Virus record (IMG/VR): IMGVR_UViG_3300011008_000007
DNA length: 64,000 nt
DNA from: a virus
Taxonomy: Duplodnaviria > Heunggongvirae > Uroviricota > Caudoviricetes
Direction: 5' to 3' (one strand)
In this document: in pieces, positions 12,382-43,876 of the stretch
How the letters are laid out: every line of letters begins with the position of its first letter
Numbering within the stretch: the first letter of the stretch is position 1
Translations under genes and position numbers: made by a program
Notes under the pieces: generated by a model
What the model was told of the DNA's origin: nothing
The model's input: only the letters and a program-made list of their open reading frames with translations
Databases searched by the model: none

Positions 12382-12418
12382 GCAAATATAGTAAATGAGT
12401 TACTAAGGAGTGACGATT

Positions 12419-13345
12419 ATGGCACAGGTTGCACGGGTAAAATCTAAAGCAAAGATTATTGAACTGTTTCCGCAAGTTGTTGAGGAAACCAAAAAGGTAA
12501 GTTCAGCGCCTAATAATAAGAAAAAGGGAACTAAGTCGGAAGTGTTTGCGTTCAGAAGCATTGAGGACATTAAGAATGTTATCAATTACTTCTACAATCG
12601 CGGCGAGTGGATTCATTATCTTTATATTACTCTTGGTTTGAATCTTGTAAGACGTGTAGGGGATATGCTCACGCTGACTTGGGAAAACTTCTTTGACCCA
12701 CGCACAGGAAATTTCCGAGATGATATTCTTGAAATTTGCGAGGATAAGACAGACAAGTTTGCTAACCCGCATATCAATTCAGCTTGCAGAGATGCTATTA
12801 CCAATTATCTTGCTAAGGTTGGTTATGACCCTGCGGTTGATGATTACAAAATGCCTGTATTCTATCAGTTTACCGGCACGGCAAAAGGCAGAGTTCTTAG
12901 TCAGAGCGGCGAACTCAAAGCAATGAAGAGAGCTGCTGAATATCTTAACCTCACTTATAATATCGGAACTCATAGTCTGCGTAAAACATTTGGTAAGTGG
13001 AGCAGAATACTTCACCCATATGATAATGACAGTATGGAGCTTCTTAGAGCCATATACAACCATAGTGATACTAAAACTACAAGTCGTTATATTGGTTTGA
13101 CTAAAGAGAAGATTGATGATTATTATGACGATATGGGTTCATTCTATACCGATTATGTTGTAGGAGATAAGGAGTTTAAGCATAGCGCGGTTTCTCCGTT
13201 GGTTAGCATTGAGCGCAACGATATTATGGAAGTAGTTAAAATGGCTTATCAGCTCGGAAAAGAGTGTTCAGAGGAAACGGATTCCGAGGTTCATCTTGAT
13301 AATATGACCTCAATGCTTTCGATGATAGATGACCTTGCAAAGTAA
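12419..13345 (+). CDS. tyrosine recombinase/integrase family protein
   Basis: C-terminal catalytic signature GTHSLRKTFG ... YNHSDTKTTSRYIG (HxxR...Y of tyrosine recombinases). Confidence 0.6.
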   Translation: MAQVARVKSKAKIIELFPQVVEETKKVSSAPNNKKKGTKSEVFAFRSIEDIKNVINYFYNRGEWIHYLYITLGLNLVRRVGDMLTLTWENFFDPRTGNFRDDILEICEDKTDKFANPHINSACRDAITNYLAKVGYDPAVDDYKMPVFYQFTGTAKGRVLSQSGELKAMKRAAEYLNLTYNIGTHSLRKTFGKWSRILHPYDNDSMELLRAIYNHSDTKTTSRYIGLTKEKIDDYYDDMGSFYTDYVVGDKEFKHSAVSPLVSIERNDIMEVVKMAYQLGKECSEETDSEVHLDNMTSMLSMIDDLAK

Positions 13346-15078: not shown

Positions 15079-15471
15079 ATGTATAACAAGAACAATTCAA
15101 TAAGACCGAAGTTTGGAGAAATATGGATGTGTAACCTTTATGCAGAAGGTAGCATTCAGAGGGGATATAGACCGGTACTCATTATATCTAACAACCAAAA
15201 TAATACATACTCTCCGACAATCAATGTAATTCCATTGACAACTAAAATGAATAAAAAGAAGTTGCCTATTCACGTTGAGTTGTGGAACTATCAAGAGTAT
15301 GGATTAAAGGCTCCGAGTACAATATTGGTTGAACAAATCACAACGATTCCTCTTGAAAATTTGACTAAGAGAATCGGCAAGATAGACGACAGTTATACTT
15401 TAGGCGCAATTTATCAAGCGATGAGTATTCAATTCCCCATATTGAGTGTTATTAATATGCACATAGCATAA
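15079..15471 (+). CDS. PemK/MazF-like endoribonuclease toxin family protein
   Basis: RPKFGEIWMCNL...GYRPVLIISNN...INVIPLTTK matches the MazF/PemK fold pattern (GDI..dF, RPalVvs, vvvaPiTs). Confidence 0.55.
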   Translation: MYNKNNSIRPKFGEIWMCNLYAEGSIQRGYRPVLIISNNQNNTYSPTINVIPLTTKMNKKKLPIHVELWNYQEYGLKAPSTILVEQITTIPLENLTKRIGKIDDSYTLGAIYQAMSIQFPILSVINMHIA

Positions 15472-17762: not shown

Positions 17763-18560
17763 ATGGCTATTATTGGTTCTATTATAGGAGACATAGCGGG
17801 TTCAGTAATTGAATTTGGAAAACCAAAAGACTATAATCCAAAAACTGCCAAGCTGTTTACAGACGATAATGAATTTACAGACGATACTGTTTTATCTATT
17901 GCTACAAAATATGCAATTGAAAATGCTCGTTATGGAGTTCCCGATTATGCCGGAGCATATCACGAATTTGGATTAAAATACCCATATTGCGGATATGGCG
18001 AAATGTTTATGGATTGGTTGGAATCCGACAATCCTCTCCCTTATGGAAGTTACGGAAACGGTTCGGCAATGAGGGTATCATATATTGCAGACTATTATTC
18101 TGGATTTGGAGAGATTAAGAGGCAGGCAGAACGTTCAGCAGAATGTACCCATAACCACGAAGAGGGAATTAAAGGCGCTATGGTTGCAGCGACTTGTATT
18201 TGGGTTGCTAAAAATGGCACAAGAAAAGATGACGTATTGAGATTTGGGAAGAGGTTTTATCCAAAATCTGAATACCCATATAGTTGCGAATATTCTTTAG
18301 ATGAACTTAGAGAGTTCTATAAGTGGGATGCGACTTGTCAAGGTTCTGTTCCTTTGGCTATTAGATGTATATATGAAGCAGACAATTATGAGGAATTTTT
18401 AAGAAATGTATTCAGCGTTGATTGCGATGCCGATACCGTAGCCTGTATTGGCGGCGGAATCGCAGAAGAATTGTTTGATGGAACGGGGTTCGACAACAAG
18501 GAAATACTTGAAAAGTATTTGCCGGAAGAATTATATAAACAAATATCAATACTTTTATAA
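17763..18560 (+). CDS. ADP-ribosylglycohydrolase (DraG/ARH family)
   Basis: N-terminal GSIIGDIAGSVIEF (GxxxGDAxG...E) and GNGSAMR, both hallmarks of ADP-ribosylglycohydrolases. Confidence 0.6.
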   Translation: MAIIGSIIGDIAGSVIEFGKPKDYNPKTAKLFTDDNEFTDDTVLSIATKYAIENARYGVPDYAGAYHEFGLKYPYCGYGEMFMDWLESDNPLPYGSYGNGSAMRVSYIADYYSGFGEIKRQAERSAECTHNHEEGIKGAMVAATCIWVAKNGTRKDDVLRFGKRFYPKSEYPYSCEYSLDELREFYKWDATCQGSVPLAIRCIYEADNYEEFLRNVFSVDCDADTVACIGGGIAEELFDGTGFDNKEILEKYLPEELYKQISILL

Positions 18561-19893: not shown

Positions 19894-20928
19894 ATGGGAG
19901 ATTTTCAGAAACTAATAGATTTTGGAAACCTATATAATTCCTGTCAAGTCTCTCTTAAAGGCAAAGGAAAGAAACAAAGTGCTATAAAATTTAATATAGA
20001 TGCCTTGGAAAATATTTTGCTTATGAAGCAAGAATTAATCCAACGTACATATCAAATTGGTAAGTACAATGAATTTGTTGTTTCTGAGCCGAAACGAAGA
20101 ATAATTAAATCAGGTACTTTTCGTGATAAGGTTCTTCAACATTGCCTATGCGACTACGTTCTATTACCCAAATTAAAAGATATTTTTATTTTGGATAATT
20201 ACGCTGGTCAAATAGGCAAAGGAACTTTATTTGGATTAAATCGTTTATCAGAAAATCTAAGTAATTTCTATGGCGAATTTGGCTATAGTGGATATATTTT
20301 AAAGTGTGATATTACTAAATTCTTTTATAGTATTAATCACACCTTAATGAAAATCTGTGTAAATAAATATTTTAAAGACCCTGATATACGTTGGGTTTGT
20401 GGATTATTTATAGATAGTACAGATGGGGATGGACTTCCATTGGGCAACCAAGTAAGCCAAGTTTTTGGTTTAATGTATCTCAATGGATTAGACCACTACA
20501 TTACAGAAGAATTAGGAATTAAATACTATGGACGGTATATGGACGATTTTTATTTAATATCGGAAAGTAAAGAAAAATTAAAAAATTGTTTACGGAAAAT
20601 AACGGAATTATTAGAAAAGATAAAGCTAACATTAAATAATAAAACAGAAATTGTACCTATAACAAAAGGAATTAGATTTTTAGGTTTTCATACATATTTA
20701 ACCGAAGAAGGAAAAGTAATAAGAAAATTAACTGGAGATAATAAACGCCAGATAAAAAAGAGATTGCGAAAATATGCCAATTTCGTAAAACTTGGCAAAA
20801 TGTCAAGAAAAGAATTTGATGAAAAATATATTGCTTGGAAGAATCATGCTTCACACGGCAATTGTTATAGATTGATTTGTAGTATGGATGAATTTGTAGA
20901 ATCTTTGTTTAATCAAAAAGGAGAGTAA
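19894..20928 (+). CDS. DGR reverse transcriptase
   Basis: RT motifs including YGRYMDDFYLI (YxDD); position downstream of TR. Confidence 0.8.
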   Translation: MGDFQKLIDFGNLYNSCQVSLKGKGKKQSAIKFNIDALENILLMKQELIQRTYQIGKYNEFVVSEPKRRIIKSGTFRDKVLQHCLCDYVLLPKLKDIFILDNYAGQIGKGTLFGLNRLSENLSNFYGEFGYSGYILKCDITKFFYSINHTLMKICVNKYFKDPDIRWVCGLFIDSTDGDGLPLGNQVSQVFGLMYLNGLDHYITEELGIKYYGRYMDDFYLISESKEKLKNCLRKITELLEKIKLTLNNKTEIVPITKGIRFLGFHTYLTEEGKVIRKLTGDNKRQIKKRLRKYANFVKLGKMSRKEFDEKYIAWKNHASHGNCYRLICSMDEFVESLFNQKGE

Positions 20929-20933
20929 TATTA

Positions 20934-21998
20934 ATGAGAAAATACATTGACGGTAAAAACCGCTTTGTTGAAGTTTTTAATCCCAAAACGGGGTTTTATA
21001 TGAGAACGGGTATTATTGACAAAGAGGGGAAAGATACAGGTGTTGACCCCTTTATGCGCTCTTATCCTGCATTAATTGATATTGGAATTATGGAGCGCTG
21101 CGTGTGTGCCCACAAGTGTAAAGTAGATTGTTATCAAAAGGCTTGTGACCGAAATGGCGAAAATATGAGCCTTGAAGATTACACTTGGATTATGGAACAG
21201 AGTAAAGGTAAGCTCCAGCAGGTGGCTTTGGGCGGCGCTGGCGACCCCGATACCCACGAAAACTTTGAGGATATTTTAAAAGTAACACGAGAATATGGTA
21301 TTGTTCCCAATTTTACAAGTTCAGGTATTACTTTCACAAAAGAAAAGGCTAAGTTGTGTAATAAATATTGCGGAGCGGTAGCAATCAGTTGGCATAATGA
21401 GGATTATACATTTAATTCAATCCAAATGCTATTGGAAGCGGGAGTTAAAACAAATATTCATTATGTTCTTTCCTCTAAATCTATTGATGACGCAATAGAT
21501 AGATTAAAGAATAATGGCTTCCCAAAGGGTATTAATGCAATTGTATTTCTTCTTTATAAACCTATTGGACTCGGCAAAATTGAGAATATATTAACTGCTA
21601 ATAATCCAAAGCTCAAAGAATTTTTTGATTTAATAGATAACGGGGATTTTAATTTTAAAATTGGATTCGATTCTTGTACTTGCCCTGGAATTATTAATAA
21701 TACTCAGAACATAAATCTCGACAGTATAGATTACTGTGAGGGCGGACGTTTTTCAATGTATATATCTGCCGATATGAACGCAATGCCTTGTTCTTTTGGA
21801 AATCAAAATCCAAAGTGGTATGTAAACCTTAGAGAGAATACCATTCAAGAGGCTTGGGATGGAGCTATATTTGAGAGATTTAGAAACTCATTAAGATATT
21901 CTTGCCCGAATTGTTTAAAGCGTGCAGGTTGCGCAGGCGGCTGTCCAATTTGCAGAGATATTGTTTTGTGTAACAAGGAGTGTAAGGAACTAATATGA
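20934..21998 (+). CDS. putative radical-SAM-like / SPASM-type Cys-rich protein (tentative)
   Basis: N-terminal Cys cluster CVCAHKCKVDC, GGAGDP (GGE-like) motif, C-terminal CPNCLKRAGCAGGCPIC cluster. Confidence 0.3.
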   Translation: MRKYIDGKNRFVEVFNPKTGFYMRTGIIDKEGKDTGVDPFMRSYPALIDIGIMERCVCAHKCKVDCYQKACDRNGENMSLEDYTWIMEQSKGKLQQVALGGAGDPDTHENFEDILKVTREYGIVPNFTSSGITFTKEKAKLCNKYCGAVAISWHNEDYTFNSIQMLLEAGVKTNIHYVLSSKSIDDAIDRLKNNGFPKGINAIVFLLYKPIGLGKIENILTANNPKLKEFFDLIDNGDFNFKIGFDSCTCPGIINNTQNINLDSIDYCEGGRFSMYISADMNAMPCSFGNQNPKWYVNLRENTIQEAWDGAIFERFRNSLRYSCPNCLKRAGCAGGCPICRDIVLCNKECKELI

Positions 21999-24876: not shown

Positions 24877-25701
24877 ATGATTAAGATAAATGGCGAAGAA
24901 ATTATAATCGAAAGATTTTATGACGGTACACCGAGAATTAAAGTTAATGAGAAATACGGCGAATTAAGAAGCGTAACTCTTGACTGGATTTATGAGAATG
25001 ATGCTGAACTTGTAAGTCTTATAATGATTAACGGTCATTTAAGAGAACACGGTGTTGAAAAGATATTCTTAAATATGCCTTATTTACCCAATGCAAGAAT
25101 GGACAGAACAGAAAATGAAGAGGAAGTTTTTACACTTAAATATTTCTGTAAAGTGATTAATGGTATGAGTTTTGATGGGATTACGGTTTATGACGCTCAT
25201 TCGAGGGTCGGAGTTGCCTTATTGGACAAGGTTGTTGATATAAACCCAAAGAATGATGTTATCATAGTATTGATTAAGATTGGTGCCTTAGACGAATATT
25301 TAAATATTATTGATGATAATTTCATTTTGTATTTTCCTGACGATGGCGCCGCAAAAAGATATTCTAAAATGTTTCCTAATATCCCATTTGCTTATGGAGA
25401 TAAGGATAGGGATTGGAAAACAGGTAAGATAATTGATACCAAAGTCAAAGACAACGGTATTGACCTTGCAGGCAAGAACGTCCTCATTATTGATGATATA
25501 TGCAGTAAGGGCGGCACATTCTATTATAGTTCCAAGAAACTCAAAGAACTTGGCGTACATAAAATTAATCTCTTCGCCACGCATTGCGAAAATATTGTAT
25601 TAGAGGGTCAAATTTTAGATAGTGGGCTGATTGAAAAATTATATACGGTTGACACTATTTTTACAAAAACACATCCAAAAATTGAGGTGATTCCATATTG
25701 A
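24877..25701 (+). CDS. ribose-phosphate pyrophosphokinase (Prs)-like protein (possible ADPR-pyrophosphate synthetase Adps)
   Basis: MPYLPNARMDRT (Prs IPYxGYARQDR motif) and PRPP-binding loop NVLIIDDICSKGGT; 274 aa, shorter than canonical Prs. Confidence 0.6.
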   Translation: MIKINGEEIIIERFYDGTPRIKVNEKYGELRSVTLDWIYENDAELVSLIMINGHLREHGVEKIFLNMPYLPNARMDRTENEEEVFTLKYFCKVINGMSFDGITVYDAHSRVGVALLDKVVDINPKNDVIIVLIKIGALDEYLNIIDDNFILYFPDDGAAKRYSKMFPNIPFAYGDKDRDWKTGKIIDTKVKDNGIDLAGKNVLIIDDICSKGGTFYYSSKKLKELGVHKINLFATHCENIVLEGQILDSGLIEKLYTVDTIFTKTHPKIEVIPY

Positions 25702-27272
25702 AACCGATAGTTCCTACGCTTTTAATTGATTTTTATAAAGGTGTTCACGCTGAAATGCTCCCTAAAAAGATTGAAAAATCCGTTTCTTATTTTACTCCGA
25801 GAATGAGCAGGGTAAAACGTTGGAAATATGTAGTTTTCTTTGGTTTACAGGGATTTATCAAAGAGTATCTTAGAGATTATTTTAATGAGCATTTCTTTAT
25901 AAGAGGTACCAATGAGGTTGTAAATGAGTATAAAAGAGTAATGGACAATACTCTTGGCGAGGGTATCTATGGAATTGAAAAAATTGAGAAACTGCATAAG
26001 CTCGGCTATTTGCCAATTGAAGTAGTTGCACTTCCCGAAGGCACAAGAGTTCCTATGCACGTTCCTATGTTTGGAATAACTAATACACATCCTGACTTTG
26101 CTTGGCTTCCGCAGGCTCTTGAAAGTTTAATTTCAGCAGAGGTTTGGCATCCTATGGTCGCGGCTACGGTTGGAGATACATATCGCCAAATTGTAAACAA
26201 GTATTATAAAGAAACTTGCGACGACAACATTTCGAGAGCGCGAGCTTTGGGTAGTTTTGACTTCCGTGGAGATGAAGGACTTGAAAACGCAACAAAAACA
26301 GGCGCAGCTTGGTTGTTGTCTTTCTTGAATACGGCTACTGTACCGGCAATTCCATACCTTGAAGAATACTATAATTGTGATTGTACAAAAGAGCCTGTTG
26401 GTTTTGGTTCTCCATCTACTGAGCATTCTGTTATGTGTAGCAACTATGCCGTAGACGGTGATGAGACTACTTTGCTTCGCAGATTATTGACCGAAATTTA
26501 CCCAAATACTTCTTTCTCGGCAGTTCTTGATAGTTACGACTACTGGAACGTAATTGACAATATTCTTCCTCAGTTAAAACCTGAGATTATGTCACATAAC
26601 GGCTGTATGCTTATGCGCGGTGATAGCGGAGATTGCGTTGATGTTGTAACCAAAACAGTATTCAAGCTATGGGATATTTTTGGTGGCACAACGAACAGTA
26701 AGGGATATAAAGTTCTCGACCCGCACGTTAAAGCTATTTATGGAGATAGCATTACTGTTCAGCGCTGCGAGCAGGTTTATCAAATTTTAAAAGATAACGG
26801 ATTTGCCGCGTCAAACGTGGCGCTTGGAGTTGGTTCTTTCTCAATGCAATGTATTGAAGAGGAAGAGGAAATCGGAGTTTTAATTCCTGGCGGAACAGAG
26901 ATATACAGACAGGGCAACACCGTTTCTACAATTGAGGGAGATACAAAATTCATTTGTACAATGCCTATTTTAAAGCCATTCACAAGAGACACATTTTCTA
27001 TGGCTATTAAAGCAACATATTGTGAAGTTGATGGTAAGCCCGTTCCCATTTTCAAAAATCCAAAAGACGGCGGATTTAAGAAATCTCAAAAAGGCTGTTG
27101 TGTTGTAGAAGAGGATGCATTTGGCGGTTTACAATATAAAGATAATTACACTTGGGAAGAGGCACAGAATAACAAAAATCAACTTCTCAAAACAGTTTTT
27201 ATAGACGGAACAATGGAAAAAGAACATTCTCTTTCGGAGATTAGAAATAGACTTCACAAAGGTGATTTTTAA
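25698..27272 (+). CDS. NAMPT-family phosphoribosyltransferase (NadV/Namat-like)
   Basis: Several blocks co-linear with nicotinamide phosphoribosyltransferase: FYKGVHAEMLP, VVFFGLQGFIKEYL, LPIEVVALPEGTRVP, FDFRGDEG, IYGDSIT. Confidence 0.7.
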   Translation: MKPIVPTLLIDFYKGVHAEMLPKKIEKSVSYFTPRMSRVKRWKYVVFFGLQGFIKEYLRDYFNEHFFIRGTNEVVNEYKRVMDNTLGEGIYGIEKIEKLHKLGYLPIEVVALPEGTRVPMHVPMFGITNTHPDFAWLPQALESLISAEVWHPMVAATVGDTYRQIVNKYYKETCDDNISRARALGSFDFRGDEGLENATKTGAAWLLSFLNTATVPAIPYLEEYYNCDCTKEPVGFGSPSTEHSVMCSNYAVDGDETTLLRRLLTEIYPNTSFSAVLDSYDYWNVIDNILPQLKPEIMSHNGCMLMRGDSGDCVDVVTKTVFKLWDIFGGTTNSKGYKVLDPHVKAIYGDSITVQRCEQVYQILKDNGFAASNVALGVGSFSMQCIEEEEEIGVLIPGGTEIYRQGNTVSTIEGDTKFICTMPILKPFTRDTFSMAIKATYCEVDGKPVPIFKNPKDGGFKKSQKGCCVVEEDAFGGLQYKDNYTWEEAQNNKNQLLKTVFIDGTMEKEHSLSEIRNRLHKGDF

Positions 27273-27742
27273 TGATTAGGATTGTTGATGGCGATTTATT
27301 AGAAAGTAAAGCTAACATTATTGCACATCAAGTTAATTGTCAAGGAGTAATGGGTTCGGGTGTGGCAAAAGCCATAAAAAAGAATTATCCGTATGCTTTT
27401 AAATGTTATAAAGAATACATAAAAGAAAATTCTCCCGAATTGGTATTTGGATTTTGTCAGCTTGTACCCATTTATCTTCCGTCTGGAAAACCAAAATATA
27501 TAGCAAATTTATTTGGACAGTTTGATTATGGATATAACGGAGATTGCTACACAAACATAGACAAGCTCCGCACGGCTTTTCTTGCATTAAATGAATTTGC
27601 AGAAGAAGAAAACCTAACCGTTGCTATGCCATATAAAATTGGCTGTGTTCGTGGCGGCGCAAACTGGAACGAGGTTTTAAAAATGATTTGCAATATTTTT
27701 CAAAACGTTTACGTCGAAATTAGGCGTTTAGATAGAGGTTAA
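27272..27742 (+). CDS. macro domain protein (ADP-ribose binding/hydrolase)
   Basis: IIAHQVNCQGVMGSGVAKAI matches the Macro-domain Gly-rich ADP-ribose pocket motif. Confidence 0.55.
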   Translation: MIRIVDGDLLESKANIIAHQVNCQGVMGSGVAKAIKKNYPYAFKCYKEYIKENSPELVFGFCQLVPIYLPSGKPKYIANLFGQFDYGYNGDCYTNIDKLRTAFLALNEFAEEENLTVAMPYKIGCVRGGANWNEVLKMICNIFQNVYVEIRRLDRG

Positions 27743-27744
27743 TT

Positions 27745-28503
27745 ATGTATGATATGATTACGAAAATAAAAGAAGATTGCGTTAAATGGATTAGCTCGTG
27801 GTTTAATAAGAATGGTTGGCAATGTAATGCAATCGTTGGTATTTCTGGTGGAATTGATTCAAGTGTAGTTGCCGCTCTTTGTGTAGAAGCTCTCGGCAAA
27901 GAACGTGTTATTGGTGTATTGATGCCGAATGGAGTTCAGCCAGATATTGATTATGCTTATAAGCTCATCAATCATTTAGGAATCGAGAGTATAGAAATCA
28001 ACATTAAAGATTCCGTAGATAATATCATAAAACAGATAGACAATGCTTCGGAGCAGACATTGATTAATTTGCCGGCACGAATTAGAATGTCAACATTATA
28101 TGCGGTTTCTCAAAGTAATAACGGCAGGGTAGCAAACACTTGTAATTTATCAGAAGATTATATTGGTTACTCAACAAGATATGGAGATAGTGTTGGTGAT
28201 TTTAGCCCATTGGCTCACTTTACTAAATCGGAAGTATTGTTGATTGCAGATAAATTGGGATTGCCTAAAGAACTAATTGAAAAGGTGCCGACAGATGGAT
28301 TGAGCGGCAAAACCGATGAAGAGAATTTTGGATTTACATACGAACAATTGGATAAGGAGATTAGAGGTTGTTATAATTATCCAAAGACCAATTTAGAGAG
28401 AGAAATCACAAATAAGATTGATGAACTACACAAGAAAAATGAGTTTAAATTAAAGCCTATGGATTGTTATGATTTCCACGGATTTAAACATTATACAAGC
28501 TAA
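27745..28503 (+). CDS. nadE: NH3-dependent NAD+ synthetase
   Basis: PP-loop GISGGIDSSVV and overall NadE-like length and order. Confidence 0.7.
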   Translation: MYDMITKIKEDCVKWISSWFNKNGWQCNAIVGISGGIDSSVVAALCVEALGKERVIGVLMPNGVQPDIDYAYKLINHLGIESIEINIKDSVDNIIKQIDNASEQTLINLPARIRMSTLYAVSQSNNGRVANTCNLSEDYIGYSTRYGDSVGDFSPLAHFTKSEVLLIADKLGLPKELIEKVPTDGLSGKTDEENFGFTYEQLDKEIRGCYNYPKTNLEREITNKIDELHKKNEFKLKPMDCYDFHGFKHYTS

Positions 28504-32885: not shown

Positions 32886-32960
32886 TGAGCCGTCGCCAAG
32901 CGGTAAGGCACAGGACTTTGACTCCTGCACTCGTGGGTTCAAATCCCGCCGGCTCAGCCA
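32886..32960 (+). tRNA. tRNA-Gln(TTG)
   Basis: Hand-folded cloverleaf: acceptor TGAGCCG/CGGCTCA, anticodon loop CTTTGAC, T-arm GTGGGTTCAAATCCCGC, CCA encoded. Confidence 0.7.
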
Positions 32961-33261
32961 ATAGGTTCTCATTGACCTTAGAATAATGGGCGAGACCAAA
33001 TGAGAAGCAGGTATAAATCTCCGTCAGCAGAGAAAGTTGAGAGAATGGCTGCGTGTTATGTGTTATCTTTTATAGTTTTTCATAGGACTTTAGCGTGAAT
33101 AAAGAAGTAAGTAAAAACTATATATGGCGAGTTCAGTAATAGATGACGCAATATACAAAGTATATTGTTTGAAAGTATAAAATCCCAGGGCTCTTTTATA
33201 CGAGTAAATAATACAAAAATATCGGGGCAGTACCGAGGCTCGTTCACCAACTTAAAAATAT

Positions 33262-33729
33262 GGGGCAGTTCTGGTATTCGACAGGCTGTTGAAAGAATAA
33301 ACTTCGCAGGTAAGCTACAACCTTAATGTGCAAACTTAAAAATAAACGACAAAACTGTTGTAACACTTCATCCTGCTCTTGTAGCAACACTCTCACAGAG
33401 GGCTGCCGCATAAGCAAATTTGGATGCCAAAACAATACTCCTGCTATTCGGTAAGTATTTGAGGTTTAGGATAGAGTAGCAAAATGGTTTCTTGCTTCCA
33501 CAAAAAGTAAGTGGTGGATTTGGTTTGACGAAACTTGTCATCCCCATTCGGAATATCACGAGACCGTCACCGAATTAAAATATAAGGAGTATTATTATGG
33601 AATGCGATTAATTTAATAAAACTATGAGAACGGTAGAGGCTCGGACGGCAAAAAGAATACCTATTGCGTAAAAAGAGTTTATTTAAGTATGTAGTTTGGA
33701 CACGAGTTCGATTCTCGTCTGCTCCACCA
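33262..33729 (+). ncRNA. ssrA: tmRNA (SsrA)
   Basis: 5' GGGGCAGTTCTGGTATTCGACAGG (tmRNA consensus GGGGCUGAUUCUGGAUUCGACGGG). 3' GGACACGAGTTCGATTCTCGTCTGCTCCACCA (T-arm + acceptor pairing with the 5' end + CCA). Candidate tag ORF 33330-33413 ending ...QRAAA-stop; length 468 nt is long. Confidence 0.6.
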
Positions 33730-33802: not shown

Positions 33803-33895
33803 GGCGCAGTAACCCTAATTGGTAAGGGAGCAGTTTGCTAAACTGTGAGTAACCGAGCAATCGGCTTGTAGGTTCAAGTCCTACCTGTGCCGCCA
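33803..33895 (+). tRNA. tRNA-Ser(GCT), type II
   Basis: Acceptor GGCGCAG/CTGTGCC, anticodon loop TTGCTAA, long variable arm, T-arm GTAGGTTCAAGTCCTAC, CCA. Confidence 0.65.
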
Positions 33896-36590: not shown

Positions 36591-38165
36591 ATGTCATTTT
36601 TTAACGAACTTAGAAAGAACATTGATGAGATTAATAATCTCCAAAAGACCGAAAACGGAGCAGTAGGTTATAAAACTACTGGCAAGAAGTTGTTGGATAT
36701 GAACTTCTCGATTCCCAAGTACAGAAAGGCAAATGAGGCTGAAATTATAGCCGATTTTGAACAGTCATTTAACGAGAACGAGATTCTTGCTATTCTTTGG
36801 ATGTTTTTCGCAAGAGATGTTCGTGGCGGACTTGGCGAAAGAAGATTATTCCGCATTTTATTCAACTGGTTTTGCAAAGAGCACACCAAGTATGCAAAAG
36901 AGTTGCTTGAATGTGTAGCAGAATATGGTCGCTGGGACGACCTTGTTAAAGCTACGGACAACACTCCTGTATGGGATGATGCGGTAGTGCTTATCAAAAA
37001 GCAGCTCACAGAAGACTTATTGAATTTTGAGGCTTCTAAAAGTATCTCACTTTTGGCTAAGTGGCTTCCGAGTGAAAGGACTTCAAGTCAGAAAACGAGA
37101 ATCCTTGCCCGCAAGTTAGCAAAGGCGCTTTCAATCAACATTGCTGATTATAACCGCATTTGTGTTAAGCTGCGCAAGTATCTTGATGTAACTGAAATCA
37201 AGATGAGCGCAAAAGAGTGGGAGAATATCAATTATTCTACGGTTCCTTCGGGCGCAAATGTAAAGTACAACAATGCTTTTCTGCGCAATGACGAAGAAAG
37301 ACGCAGAGCATATTTGGAGTCTTTGAAAAAGGGCGAAACTAAAATCAATGCTTCTGCTTTGTTCCCACACGACATTGTACATAAGTATAGCAAAAATTCT
37401 TATTGGCACGGTTCAGTAGGCTCATATGACGAAGCTCTTGAACAGTTGTGGAAGGCTCTTCCCGATATGGGCGGACTCGAAAACACGATTGTTGTTGCCG
37501 ACGGCTCTGGTTCAATGACTTGTAGAGTTGACCCAAATAGTACAACTTCTGCGCTTGAAGTAGCCAATGGTTTAGCTTTGTATTGTGCTGAACATTGCAA
37601 GGGAGAATTTAAGGATAAATATATCACATTCTCATCCAGACCTCAGTTTGTAGATTTGAGCAACAAAATCTCACTACACGACAAATTGGCTGAGGCTTAC
37701 AGACACGACGAGTGTTCAAATACCGACATCCAGGCTGTATTTGACCTTATACTCCATACTGCAACTTCAACCAATGCCAAACAAGAGGATATTCCTAAGA
37801 CTATTCTTATTGTTTCCGATATGGAGTTCGATGCCGCAACAAGTACAGGCGGTTGGTATGGTTCATCATCTTCTCTCACTCCGTCACTTTTTAAAGTAAT
37901 TGACAGAAAATATAAGGAAGCAGGTTATCAGTTGCCGCGCCTTGTATTTTGGAATGTAAACTCTCGCACAGGCACAATTCCAATGAAAGAGAATGACCTT
38001 GGAGTAACTTTGGTTAGTGGCTTCTCAATTTCGATTGTGCAGATGGTGCAGAACGGCGAAACCGACCCATACCTCAATCTTGTCAAGGTTCTTATGGGAG
38101 ATAGATATATGCCCATTTGTGCAAAATTACTCGGAAATACATTTAATAAGGAGAACTACAAATGA
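36591..38165 (+). CDS. vWA-domain protein, Ro60/TROVE-like (Rsr-like) candidate
   Basis: MIDAS motif VVADGSGSMT about 300 aa in; C-terminal blocks (IVSDMEFDAA...LPRLVFWNVNSRTGT...LGVTLVSGFS) co-linear with the Ro60 vWA region; about 520 aa like Ro60. Confidence 0.45.
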   Translation: MSFFNELRKNIDEINNLQKTENGAVGYKTTGKKLLDMNFSIPKYRKANEAEIIADFEQSFNENEILAILWMFFARDVRGGLGERRLFRILFNWFCKEHTKYAKELLECVAEYGRWDDLVKATDNTPVWDDAVVLIKKQLTEDLLNFEASKSISLLAKWLPSERTSSQKTRILARKLAKALSINIADYNRICVKLRKYLDVTEIKMSAKEWENINYSTVPSGANVKYNNAFLRNDEERRRAYLESLKKGETKINASALFPHDIVHKYSKNSYWHGSVGSYDEALEQLWKALPDMGGLENTIVVADGSGSMTCRVDPNSTTSALEVANGLALYCAEHCKGEFKDKYITFSSRPQFVDLSNKISLHDKLAEAYRHDECSNTDIQAVFDLILHTATSTNAKQEDIPKTILIVSDMEFDAATSTGGWYGSSSSLTPSLFKVIDRKYKEAGYQLPRLVFWNVNSRTGTIPMKENDLGVTLVSGFSISIVQMVQNGETDPYLNLVKVLMGDRYMPICAKLLGNTFNKENYK

Positions 38166-38995
38166 GTAAGAATTACAGCGAATTTGACAAACGAATGAAA
38201 AAATATGAGTTTGTCACAAGAACACATTTGATGACACGAACTCCTGCTATTATTAGAATTGACGGAAAGGCTTTCCATACGTTTACAAAGGGATTTAAAA
38301 AGCCTTTCGACGAAGTTCTGCAAAACAGTATGCAGGAAACAATGAAGTATTTATGTGAGAATATCCAGGGATGTGTTCTTGGATATGCGCAGTCTGATGA
38401 AATCACTTTGGTTTTGACAGATTATAAGACTCTCGAAACTTCGGCTTGGTTCGATTATAACATTCAAAAGTGCGCAAGTGTTGCGGCAAGTATGGCGACT
38501 ATGGCATTTAACAGAGCATTCCGCAAGAATGTTTTTGACTGGATGGAAGCTAATAACCCCGAAGATAAGTCTAATAATGAAGAAACTATAGCATACCATA
38601 ATCAGTTCGGTTCATATAACGCAGCATTTAATAGGGGAGCTCTATTTGATGCAAGGGTATTCAATATTCCCAAAGAAGAAGTTTGTAACAACATTCTTTG
38701 GCGCCAACAAGATGCTATCAGAAATTCTATCCAAATGGTAGGACGTTCATTCTATTCCGACAAAGAGCTTTTCGAGAAATCCACAAAGGATATTCAGGAA
38801 ATGTTATCTACGGACAAGAAAATAAATTGGGCTGAGGATTATCCTATTAGATTTCAGCGTGGTAGTTGCTGCATTAAGAAGTATGATGAGAATACCGGTC
38901 ATAATGAGTGGGTAATTGATAATGAAATCCCTATTTTCAAAGAAGAGGGAAGAGCATATATTGATAATCTTGTATTTTGCGGCGAAAATTTATAA
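38162..38995 (+). CDS. Thg1-like protein (tRNA-His guanylyltransferase family / 3'-5' polymerase)
   Basis: IIRIDGKAFHTFTKGFKKPFDE ... VLGYAQSDEITLVL matches Thg1 catalytic blocks (RxDGxxFHxF, xKPxDxR, YGQSDEYSF). Confidence 0.65.
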   Translation: MSKNYSEFDKRMKKYEFVTRTHLMTRTPAIIRIDGKAFHTFTKGFKKPFDEVLQNSMQETMKYLCENIQGCVLGYAQSDEITLVLTDYKTLETSAWFDYNIQKCASVAASMATMAFNRAFRKNVFDWMEANNPEDKSNNEETIAYHNQFGSYNAAFNRGALFDARVFNIPKEEVCNNILWRQQDAIRNSIQMVGRSFYSDKELFEKSTKDIQEMLSTDKKINWAEDYPIRFQRGSCCIKKYDENTGHNEWVIDNEIPIFKEEGRAYIDNLVFCGENL

Positions 38996-40839: not shown

Positions 40840-40967
40840 AGGGGTATAGCTCAATTGGTAGAGCGCTGTAATTTTTCAGTATCTTGCAAAAGATACATAC
40901 AGCAAACCATTACATAAAATAATGCTTAGGGAGCCAGATGTTACAGGTTCGAGTCCTGTTGCCCCTC
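40840..40967 (+). ncRNA. atypical tRNA-like gene 1 (128 nt; Ala-like 5' half; internal Cys-like TTGCAAA hairpin)
   Basis: Canonical acceptor AGGGGTA/TGCCCCT, D-arm AGCTCAATTGGTAGAGC and T-arm ACAGGTTCGAGTCCTGT, but about 77 nt between them. Contains hairpin GTATCTTGCAAAAGATAC + ACAGCAAACC. Confidence 0.45.
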
Positions 40968-40975
40968 GCAAATAT

Positions 40976-41097
40976 GCCGGTGTAGCCCAATGGTAGAGCA
41001 GCGGACGCATAATGTGTCTTGATTTAGAAAACACTTGCAGCAATTAAGCGGTCAAGAAAACCGTGTGTTGGAGGTTCGATTCCTCTCCGCCGGCACC
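40976..41097 (+). ncRNA. atypical tRNA-like gene 2 (122 nt; Thr-like ends)
   Basis: Acceptor GCCGGTG/CGCCGGC-A-CCA, D-arm TAGCCCAATGGTAGAGC, T-arm GGAGGTTCGATTCCTCT. Central insert with outer helix CGCATAAT/ATTAAGCG, hairpin GTGTCTTGATTTAGAAAACAC + GCAGCAATT. Confidence 0.45.
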
Positions 41098-41100
41098 AAA

Positions 41101-41220
41101 TGGGAGCGTAGCTCAGTTGGTAGAGTAATAGTAATGAAAAGTTGTCTTGTAAAGACAATAACAGCAATCTATTAAGTTCCAAACTATGTGTCGCAAGTTC
41201 GATTCTTGTCGCTCCCTCCA
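41101..41220 (+). ncRNA. atypical tRNA-like gene 3 (120 nt). Equals tRNA-Gly(TCC) if a 43 nt insert between positions 31/32 is removed
   Basis: Acceptor GGGAGCG/CGCTCCC-T-CCA. With the insert AATGAAAAG-TTGTCTTGTAAAGACAA-TAACAGCAAT-CTATTAA excised, anticodon arm ATAGT-GTTCCAA-ACTAT. The insert itself holds a Tyr-like hairpin TTGTC-TTGTAAA-GACAA. Confidence 0.5.
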
Positions 41221-43040: not shown

Positions 43041-43334
43041 ATGAACATAGATATATTTTTAACGGTGCGCGCCTTGTGTGGTGTGGCAATTATGATTAAT
43101 CTTGCTTTGTATTTTTTGTTTAGACATAAAGAGTATTCAGCTTTGATTTATTCGGTAGTTTTAGGCGGCATTTTTACCATAGATTTTATTGCAGCGCTTA
43201 ATGAAGGTACAGTTTGGCGCCCTCTAATATTTGGCATAGGTTTGATAGCAATAATCTTTTTAATTGCCGCAGATATAAATTTTTATTTATCTGATGATGA
43301 ATATGAAGAACTGGAGCAGAACGATACGGAATGA
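43041..43334 (+). CDS. small membrane protein
   Basis: Two hydrophobic segments; ATG 43041 preferred over track start 43029. Confidence 0.4.
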
Positions 43335-43876
43335 ATATAACAAAAATCAGTCGCTATTTAAGTATGATACTAAGACATAAGCCAGAAGAAATTGGAATTA
43401 CACTCGATGAACACGGATGGGCAAACACCAAAGATATTCTTGCTGGATTAAAAATTGATATGCCGACACTACAACATATTGTAAAAACCGATAATAAACA
43501 ACGTTATTCATTTAACAAAGATGAGAGTAAAATTCGGGCAAATCAAGGACATTCTATTCCTGTTGACGTTGAACTCGAAGAAGTAATGCCACCAGCCGTT
43601 TTATATCACGGAACCGGTAAGAAATATGTAGATTCTATTGATAAGCAAGGATTAATACCAAAATCTCGCCTATATGTTCATTTGTCTTTGGATAAAGAAA
43701 CTGCATATGAAGTGGGTAAGAGGCACGGTTCTCCTTATATTTATAAGGTTGATTCGGAAGCTATGCACAAAGATGGATATAAATTCTTCCTGTCTGTAAA
43801 TGGTGTTTATTTAACTAAAGAAGTTCCTACAAAGTATTTGAGTTTGGATTACAGTATGTTTTCAAGAGGTATTTAA
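43331..43876 (+). CDS. RNA 2'-phosphotransferase Tpt1/KptA family
   Basis: [28 protein letters not shown] ... [28 protein letters not shown] matches the KptA/Tpt1 signature (LRH, HGT, VHLS). Confidence 0.65.

Follow-up and report, generated by a model that had tools for sequence, protein, structure and literature searches.

An unusually long tmRNA gene in a tRNA-rich phage, with a 21-residue tag shared with other phages and prophages

Phage-encoded transfer-messenger RNAs (tmRNA, the product of ssrA) are a known class; they have been documented in Bxz1-like mycobacteriophages, Bacillus phage G and DS6A (PMC4131195), they occur in huge phages (PMC7162821), and 402 of 18,146 phage genomes contain one (PMC9004378). 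Here we describe a gene that joins this class, in a 64,000-nucleotide (nt) stretch, called the window below, of the IMG/VR virus record IMGVR_UViG_3300011008_000007 (Caudoviricetes). Like the tmRNAs of the Bxz1 group, phage G, Melnitz-like marine phages and huge phages, it is a complete ssrA in a large, tRNA-rich genome with no smpB nearby; it differs from them in having a tag to which theirs are unrelated, in its apparent host group (rumen or gut Clostridia), and in being too long for the program ARAGORN. What is new is an over-long tmRNA that the usual detection program misses, with a 21-residue tag common only to other phages and prophages. From its sequence and relatives we consider it likely that this is a functional-looking one-piece tmRNA gene of the phage itself, the phage being large, tRNA-rich and probably temperate, with a likely rumen Ruminococcus-like Clostridium host.

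A search with the Rfam covariance model RF00023, a check proposed in an earlier sequence-only reading that had called this locus a tmRNA, returned a match at 33262–33729 on the + strand that spans the model end to end (positions 1–374) and scores 76 bits (gathering score 47; E 1e-27), far above chance level. The tmRNA identity is borne out by this full-length match, by covariation, and by ARAGORN after shortening of the gene. The 7-bp acceptor with one G-U pair and the T-arm described in that reading were also recovered; the G·U is the third pair (G3·U), and the T-arm reads ACGAG/UUCGAUU/CUCGU (Table 1, in which tmRNA position 1 is window position 33262). The acceptor 3' strand is followed by ACCA (33726–33729), comprising the discriminator A and an encoded CCA end. 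G3·U is an alanine identity element, and it is invariant in 15 of 15 homologues.

Pair counts were made on an alignment of 15 distinct homologous sequences (loci are designated by L numbers). The acceptor stem is paired in 98% of cells with two pairs changed on both sides, and the T-stem in 100% with two compensatory pairs; the three segments of helix 2 are 91–100% paired, with compensatory double changes at 11 pairs. Pseudoknot 1, which lies just 5' of the resume codon, is 83–87% paired (P3, P4) and has three doubly changed pairs. Pseudoknots 2 and 3 have comparative support among the close relatives, and P7 of pseudoknot 2 is maintained through double changes in L053. Over all proposed pairs, 80.9% of cells hold a standard pair, versus 33–44% when the 3' partners are slid by one to three columns; 29 pairs are changed on both sides, versus 2–8 in the slid controls; and none of 500 shuffles equals the observed covariation score. 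Compensatory changes thus support the predicted helices H1 and H2, pseudoknots 1 to 3 and the T-arm, and the RNA predicted for 33262–33729 conforms to the structural definition of a one-piece tmRNA.

Compared with the E. coli SsrA type, the window tmRNA has the same G3·U acceptor, T-arm and long helix 2, pseudoknot 1 likewise placed 5' of the resume codon, an A-rich stretch (AUAAAC) adjoining that codon, a short frame encoding a non-polar C-terminus, and pseudoknots 3' of the frame, of which 2 and 3 have comparative support. It differs in being phage-borne, in its length (468 nt versus the 374-column consensus), in its expanded pseudoknot-4 region, in its resume codon GAC (Asp), and in its 21-residue tag without a YALAA-type ending. 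The AUAAAC/GAC context at 33348 parallels AUAGUC/GCA of E. coli.

The tag had previously been placed in the frame 33330–33413. That frame is open and translates as described, but its start was set six codons early, at GCA 33330 instead of GAC 33348, and the added peptide is not (A)NLKINDKTVV... but, in the same frame, (A)DKTVVTLHPALVATLSQRAAA, translated from GAC 33348. In the Rfam alignment the consensus resume codon falls on GAC 33348–33350. When at least 40 nt of an insert in the gene are removed, default ARAGORN calls the tag at tmRNA positions 87–152, as DKTVVTLHPALVATLSQRAAA and a stop, and it calls the homologous frame in L050 (DTTVVTLHPALLAVLGQRAVA and a stop) and L035 (DDTVVMIHPAFAAFVANRVAA and a stop). 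In-frame stops occur two codons 5' of GAC in L034 and L032 and four codons 5' of it in L055, which puts the six additional N-terminal codons outside the tag of this family; in the window these codons lie within and just 3' of pseudoknot 1, overlapping its 3' strand.

All homologues have a 21-codon tag of the form D.TVV..HPA..A....R..A, with residues D1, T3, V4, V5, H8, P9, A10, A13, R18 and A21 invariant across both groups of homologues described below; TAA or TGA closes the frame at the same codon throughout. Between the window and L053 the tags differ by eight synonymous and four non-synonymous codons, and variable sites are biased to the third codon position (4/1/11 at positions 1/2/3). By these counts the predicted frame evolves as coding sequence does, and the alignments point to the conserved tag of a phage-carried tmRNA lineage, not a one-off.

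We compared the tag with the list built into ARAGORN, which holds 1,269 name–tag pairs. The earlier description of it as atypical, ending in RAAA, longer than typical and without YALAA, agrees with this comparison. Neither HPA nor TVV occurs in any of the 1,269 tags, and the best local similarity is a weak one to Ureaplasma (...VELNPAFMASA..., score 25). Endings of the R-x-A-A type are listed for Chlamydia (RVAA), Wolbachia (RVAA) and Nautilia (RAAA). The long-tag tmRNAs of Mollicutes and Chlamydiae thus resemble the window tmRNA in having tags of more than 20 residues, in the weak Ureaplasma similarity and in the R-x-A-A endings of Chlamydia, but the similarity is at motif level only and indicates neither common descent nor a Lon-specific recognition of the kind that Mycoplasma tags have. 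Among phages, the tag of Bxz1 (ATDTDATVTDAEIEAFFAEEAAALV) is likewise long, and it differs from that of its host.

The Clostridial tags in the list include those of Ruminococcus albus (DNDNFAMAA and GHGYFAKAS), Clostridium thermocellum (ANEDNYALAAA) and Ethanoligenens harbinense (AKDNVIRVNFGRSEEALAA). Judged by sequence, the phage tag represents a new tag family and no copy of the known Clostridial tags. A scan of IMG/VR with the DNDNFAMAA pattern of native Ruminococcus ssrA gave no match. That the tag is conserved at the peptide level and unlike the known Clostridial ones suggests a role in the phage that depends on its sequence.

Homologues were found by pattern scans of IMG/VR, JGI metagenomes and GTDB genomes, and also with nhmmer. 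The close ones (L050/L056, from Ruminococcus sp. YE282; L055; L057/L060; L058; L053) all lie beside homologues of the window's own genes, with identities of 71% for the reverse transcriptase, 75% for NAMPT, 71% for the SPFH protein, 60–62% for the TROVE-like protein, 64% for Thg1 and 70% for the phosphoesterase. Syntenic relatives occur in IMG/VR contigs of 54–171 kb; the 171-kb contig is that of L053, which also carries the closest relative of the phosphoesterase. RF00023 scores are 87.5 bits for L053, 76.9 for L050 and 90.3 for L035, the last from a second and more distant group. In Ruminococcus sp. YE282 the IMG/VR provirus occupies ∼113 kb at the end of a 207-kb contig, and the presence of this copy in a prophage relative indicates Ruminococcus as the host genus.

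The second group, named here for Clostridiales bacterium CCNA10, comprises L032, L034–L037, L039–L047, L049, L051, L052 and L054. These are gut prophages with copies of 404–405 nt and ∼50% G+C content, flanked by an RdRP-domain protein, an HNH endonuclease, an exonuclease, other PHROG-matching genes and tRNA arrays. The RdRP-domain protein (PF05183, eukaryote-type; phrog_8308, E 8e-262) has 824–880 residues, as at L049:897–3539 and L043:6302–8776, and is presumably similar to YonO, the single-subunit RNA polymerase of SPbeta.

Among 185,579 species-representative genomes the tag pattern occurs in tmRNA in only two, YE282 and CCNA10, both times in a prophage; the pattern is a strict one, which variant host tags would escape. 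A third match, within a protein-coding region, has no relation to these. Among the matches listed, the tmRNA lineage is confined to phages and prophages. We also considered the tag as mimicry of the host, with the YE282 and CCNA10 copies as their hosts' own ssrA; tblastn, Pfam and PHROGs ruled this out, since both loci are phage-borne. No similar tmRNA was found among 50,697 deposited phage genomes, and exact searches of IMG/VR with the 5' and 3' ends of the window tmRNA gave no match. A synteny search through the downstream phosphoesterase yielded 31 loci with no tmRNA within 4 kb; in the relatives the gene occupies another place in the tRNA island. The pattern of the shared 3' end also retrieved permuted (two-piece) tmRNAs on small IMG/VR contigs, at L033:362–774 and L038:5759–6151 (−), with tags ANDSVFAEDLRLAA and ANDAFYGEELRLAA; these are unrelated to the window tmRNA family.

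That the gene is phage-encoded, as first proposed, is upheld by its mid-contig position in a phage-like genome with syntenic relatives in IMG/VR. The window is part of a 161,988-bp assembled contig (ENA ERZ3810914 NODE_9), in which the tmRNA lies near the middle, at ∼68 kb. Open reading frames (ORFs) are on the + strand in 94 of 96 cases, 74 of them match 70 PHROG families, and phage-type genes extend on the same strand for 30 kb on each side of the tmRNA. The G+C content stays at 31–43% along the whole window, and no smpB/rnr neighbourhood was found around the tmRNA. The gene lies inside the phage genome, away from any prophage–host junction.

The gene is also unusually long, as the sequence-only reading had noted: 468 nt, or 63–68 nt more than most homologues (400–405 nt), with L053 at 489 nt. 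Relative to the 400-nt homologues there is a 10-nt extension of pseudoknot 2 (∼33427–33436) without counterpart in the closest relatives and present in the CCNA10 type, a loop 13 nt larger at ∼33551–33563, and, as alignment gaps show, ∼40 nt of AU-rich sequence within 33576–33643. The alignment thus attributes the additional ∼68 nt to expansions of pseudoknots 2 and 4, with most coming from the pseudoknot-4 region. In E. coli the pseudoknot 2/4 part of tmRNA tolerates replacement. The insert matched no Rfam family and folds no better than shuffled sequences (z +0.5). It contains a strong Shine-Dalgarno-like site, AAGGAG, followed, after 7 nt, by AUG GAA UGC GAU UAA (MECD and stop; window 33584–33611); this mini-ORF was rejected as a real gene and is probably due to chance, as it is not conserved in L053.

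Part of the 33576–33643 expansion is common to the window and L053, and L053 in addition duplicates the pseudoknot-3 unit. This unit, GGUUUCUUGCUUCC...AAGUAAGUGGUGG (window 33460–33525), comes close to the consensus of the wcaG motif in Rfam (RF01761; 23 bits), and at the duplicated unit (L053:3476–3568) the motif scores 48 bits, above its gathering score of 42. The wcaG motif may, on this likeness, be related to tandem tmRNA-type pseudoknots.

With default settings ARAGORN reports 16 tRNAs and no tmRNA in the window, and relaxed thresholds give only spurious calls. In deletion trials the default program calls a tmRNA with the exact native ends at gene lengths of 428 nt and below, which shows that the miss reflects a length ceiling and no defect of the gene. 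With this ceiling near 430 nt, expanded tmRNAs such as the window gene and the 489-nt gene of the related phage are missed. Published censuses of phage tmRNAs relied on ARAGORN (PMC7162821; PMC9004378).

The most likely role of the phage tmRNA, given these features, is trans-translation with the alanyl-tRNA synthetase, SmpB and EF-Tu of the host. The RNA would be co-transcribed with the neighbouring tRNAs and trimmed at G1, its CCA end being gene-encoded, and host alanyl-tRNA synthetase would aminoacylate it with alanine by way of G3·U. Host SmpB (there is no smpB in the window) would then deliver it to ribosomes stalled on broken mRNAs, with host EF-Tu also taking part. The ribosome would resume at GAC 33348, append A-DKTVVTLHPALVATLSQRAAA and stop at UAA, which would release ribosomes for phage translation and mark the truncated protein, presumably for proteolysis through its non-polar C-terminus. 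In this way ribosomes would stay available when mRNAs are cut, be it through host shut-off, defence RNases or the phage's own MazF/EndoA-like protein (15079–15471).

Several points weigh against a functional phage tmRNA acting in this way. The relatives at L055:6714–7116, L057:7826–8228 and L058:9953–10355 have non-canonical T-loops (GGCGGUU or GGCAGUU) with the T-stem kept, and RF00023 scores among them fall to 50.8 bits. This hints that the tRNA-like domain is not uniformly constrained in the lineage; these three copies may be disabled, or may have a different architecture of that domain. The pseudoknot-4 pairing proposed for the window, P11 (303–307/383–387), is window-specific and 44% paired, and comparative support for it was not found. 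No SmpB was detected by Pfam among 84 window ORFs, nor by tblastn with approximate query sequences in the window and all loci, and function consequently depends on a presumed fit with host SmpB. The genome survey covered 64 kb of the 162 kb, and the benefit of the tmRNA to the phage is purely what we infer.

An improbable alternative is that the RNA is a decoy or sensor, which titrates host SmpB, competes with host tmRNA, or reports stalling to the lysis–lysogeny decision. DS6A carries little beyond the tRNA-like domain of tmRNA, and such molecules inhibit tmRNA, perhaps by SmpB titration (PMC4131195); phages are also said to sense the state of the host by tmRNA (PMC7162821). The lack of a detected phage SmpB in the window and loci and the probably temperate nature of the phage are in keeping with such a role. 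A decoy could do without a tag frame; against this role, the 21-codon frame is conserved along with its stop and the sequence context 5' of it, under constraint of the coding type.

We think it quite improbable that the gene is a captured host ssrA decaying in the phage, a functionless passenger acquired by imprecise excision beside an ssrA attachment site. Integration at ssrA is frequent among temperate phages, and phage ssrA genes have been suggested to be captured through imprecise excision (PMC9004378). The window does encode a tyrosine recombinase (12410–13345), but this is 20 kb distant. Insertions in the gene, the relic-like partial copy upstream of it and the aberrant T-loops of some relatives could all be taken as signs of decay. 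However, the gene is kept in at least six diverged relatives (neighbouring proteins 55–75% identical) and in a second phage group, compensatory changes maintain its helices, changes in the tag are mainly synonymous, and the window copy retains G3·U, a canonical T-loop, ACCA and the resume-codon context. That the gene is instead the chromosomal ssrA of a bacterial host, the window being bacterial DNA or a prophage border, is very improbable indeed, because the homologues in the Ruminococcus sp. YE282 assembly and the complete Clostridiales bacterium CCNA10 genome that would favour it are themselves phage-flanked, and the same-strand phage-type genes, the even G+C content, the lack of an smpB/rnr neighbourhood and the rarity of the tag pattern among species representatives (2 of 185,579) all speak against it.

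Table 1. Features of the tmRNA gene and its surroundings in the window.
Feature	Window position	Strand	tmRNA numbering	Basis or detail
One-piece tmRNA (ssrA) gene, 468 nt, CCA encoded	33262..33729	+		RF00023; nhmmer homologues; ARAGORN on shortened gene
5' end GGGGCAGTTCTGGTATTCGACAGG; 3' end GAGTTCGATTCTCGTCTGCTCCACCA	33262; 33729			Sequence read directly
Acceptor stem, GGGGCAG with CUGCUCC	33262..33268 with 33719–33725	+	1–7/458–464	7 bp, G3·U462
T-arm, ACGAG-UUCGAUU-CUCGU	33702..33718	+	441–457	5-bp stem, canonical 7-nt T-loop
Helix 2, 5' strands (H2a 33283–33289, H2b 33296–33304, H2d 33305–33308)	33283..33308	+	22–28/430–436, 35–43/414–422, 44–47/404–407	Partners 33665–33697
Pseudoknot 1 (P3 33309–33311 with 33320–33322; P4 33314–33319 with 33327–33331)	33309..33331	+	48–50/59–61, 53–58/66–70	
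Tag frame: resume codon GAC 33348–33350, 21 codons DKTVVTLHPALVATLSQRAAA, stop TAA 33411–33413	33348..33413	+		Translation, ARAGORN, relatives
Pseudoknot 2 (P6 33434–33439 with 33454–33459; P7 33442–33449 with 33474–33481)	33434..33481	+	173–178/193–198, 181–188/213–220	
Pseudoknot 3 (P8 33491–33497 with 33505–33511; P9 33498–33501 with 33514–33517)	33491..33517	+	230–236/244–250, 237–240/253–256	
Expanded pseudoknot-4 region: stem 33546–33551 with 33570–33575, enlarged loop, AU-rich insert 33576–33643	33546..33648	+		
tRNA-Gln(ttg), 5' neighbour	32886..32960	+		ARAGORN, Rfam
Conserved non-coding spacer, ∼170 nt	32961..33130	+		Alignment; directly 5' of tmRNA in relatives
Spacer counterparts	L050:4795–4972; L055:6540–6713; L058:10356–10530 (−)			
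Relic-like partial copy: GGGGCAGT, then ACCGAGGCTCGTTCACC (17 nt), then AACTTAAAAATA	33224..33259	+	GGGGCAGT = 1–8; AACTTAAAAATA = 72–83	
tRNA-Ser(gct), 3' neighbour	33803..33895	+		ARAGORN, Rfam; in relatives 5' of tmRNA

The partial duplicate of the tmRNA 5' end that had been reported upstream of the gene is present: the octamer GGGGCAGT has only two sites in the 64 kb, one in this copy and one at the tmRNA 5' end. The 26 nt at 33224–33249, GGGGCAGTACCGAGGCTCGTTCACCA, end in CACCA, and the copy forms the end of a 133-nt insert (33129–33261) that the relatives are without. Neither acceptor pairing nor a T-loop was found in it, its fold is no better than that of shuffles (z +0.8), and it was not found 5' of the tmRNA in L050, L053, L055 or L058. 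With no independent fold and no counterpart in relatives, it is probably a relic of partial duplication, although it may function as a leader. Candidate readings as a decayed tRNA-Ser or a decayed tmRNA were rejected, the alignments being insignificant beyond the exact 8-nt and 12-nt matches, and so was the idea that the insert within the tmRNA gene and the upstream copy are folded elements (z +0.5 to +0.8 against shuffles). The tRNA-like-domain-only ssrA of DS6A is similar to the 26-nt copy in repeating the tmRNA 5' end and in the CACCA end; the copy differs in being far too short and in lacking acceptor pairing and a T-loop.

Further upstream, the conserved spacer gives 41 pairs in RNAalifold, nine of them with compensatory changes (four sequences), and Rfam gives no match to it at E≤1. 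Either a tmRNA leader or a separate, undescribed structured RNA may be encoded here. A scan for promoter- and terminator-like sites adjoining the tmRNA found none. The surrounding tRNA island has 19 Rfam tRNA matches.

Elsewhere there are tRNA matches of 116–129 nt that standard ARAGORN misses, in the window (40840–40967, 40976–41095 and 41102–41217) and in L058 (6852–6980 and 7279–7405). In its intron mode the program models two of the three window tRNAs with hairpin-containing anticodon-loop inserts of 43–47 nt, far below the size of group I introns. They lie near genes for a phage Tpt1/KptA RNA 2'-phosphotransferase (43331–43876) and Thg1 (38162–38995), and this proximity hints at an unusual system of tRNA processing or repair.

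Pfam families in the window include DNA methylases, NAD-dependent ligase, NAMPT, NAD synthase, PRPP synthetase, ADP-ribosylglycohydrolase, a macro domain, reverse transcriptase, a MazF-like toxin, a tyrosine recombinase, Thg1, Tpt1/KptA and a TROVE-like protein. A set of NAD-related genes at 17763–18560 and 24877–28503 encodes the ADP-ribosylglycohydrolase, a PRPP synthetase-like protein, NAMPT and NAD synthase; NAMPT (75%) and NAD synthase (55%) are conserved in L055, and the set may also include two genes from other parts of the window, those for the macro domain and an isochorismatase. By its gene content it may be an NAD-replenishing counter-defence module. The reverse transcriptase is followed by a SPASM-domain protein (19894–21998) and shares 71% identity with its YE282 prophage counterpart. 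The MazF/EndoA-like endoribonuclease comes without an obvious antitoxin call.

A lineage with a conserved tag gives a handle on the purpose of phage tmRNAs, for which Ruminococcus sp. YE282, with its prophage relative, is a cultured entry point. Conservation of the tag peptide across two unrelated phage groups, together with its unlikeness to the short DNDNFAMAA-type tags in the list for Ruminococcus albus and other Clostridia, argues that its sequence matters to the phage. A possible but doubtful extension of the functional phage tmRNA reading is that this is a phage-only lineage circulating in large phages of rumen and gut Clostridia that are unrelated to one another, with the tag as a phage-specific signal, distinct from the host's tag, that gives stalled products a different fate. 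If so, a corollary is that surveys based on ARAGORN systematically miss phage tmRNAs of more than ∼430 nt. The products of stalled host ribosomes would then go to another protease or adaptor, or escape ClpXP, and the phage would be taking over trans-translation, beyond a mere topping-up of the host's own supply.

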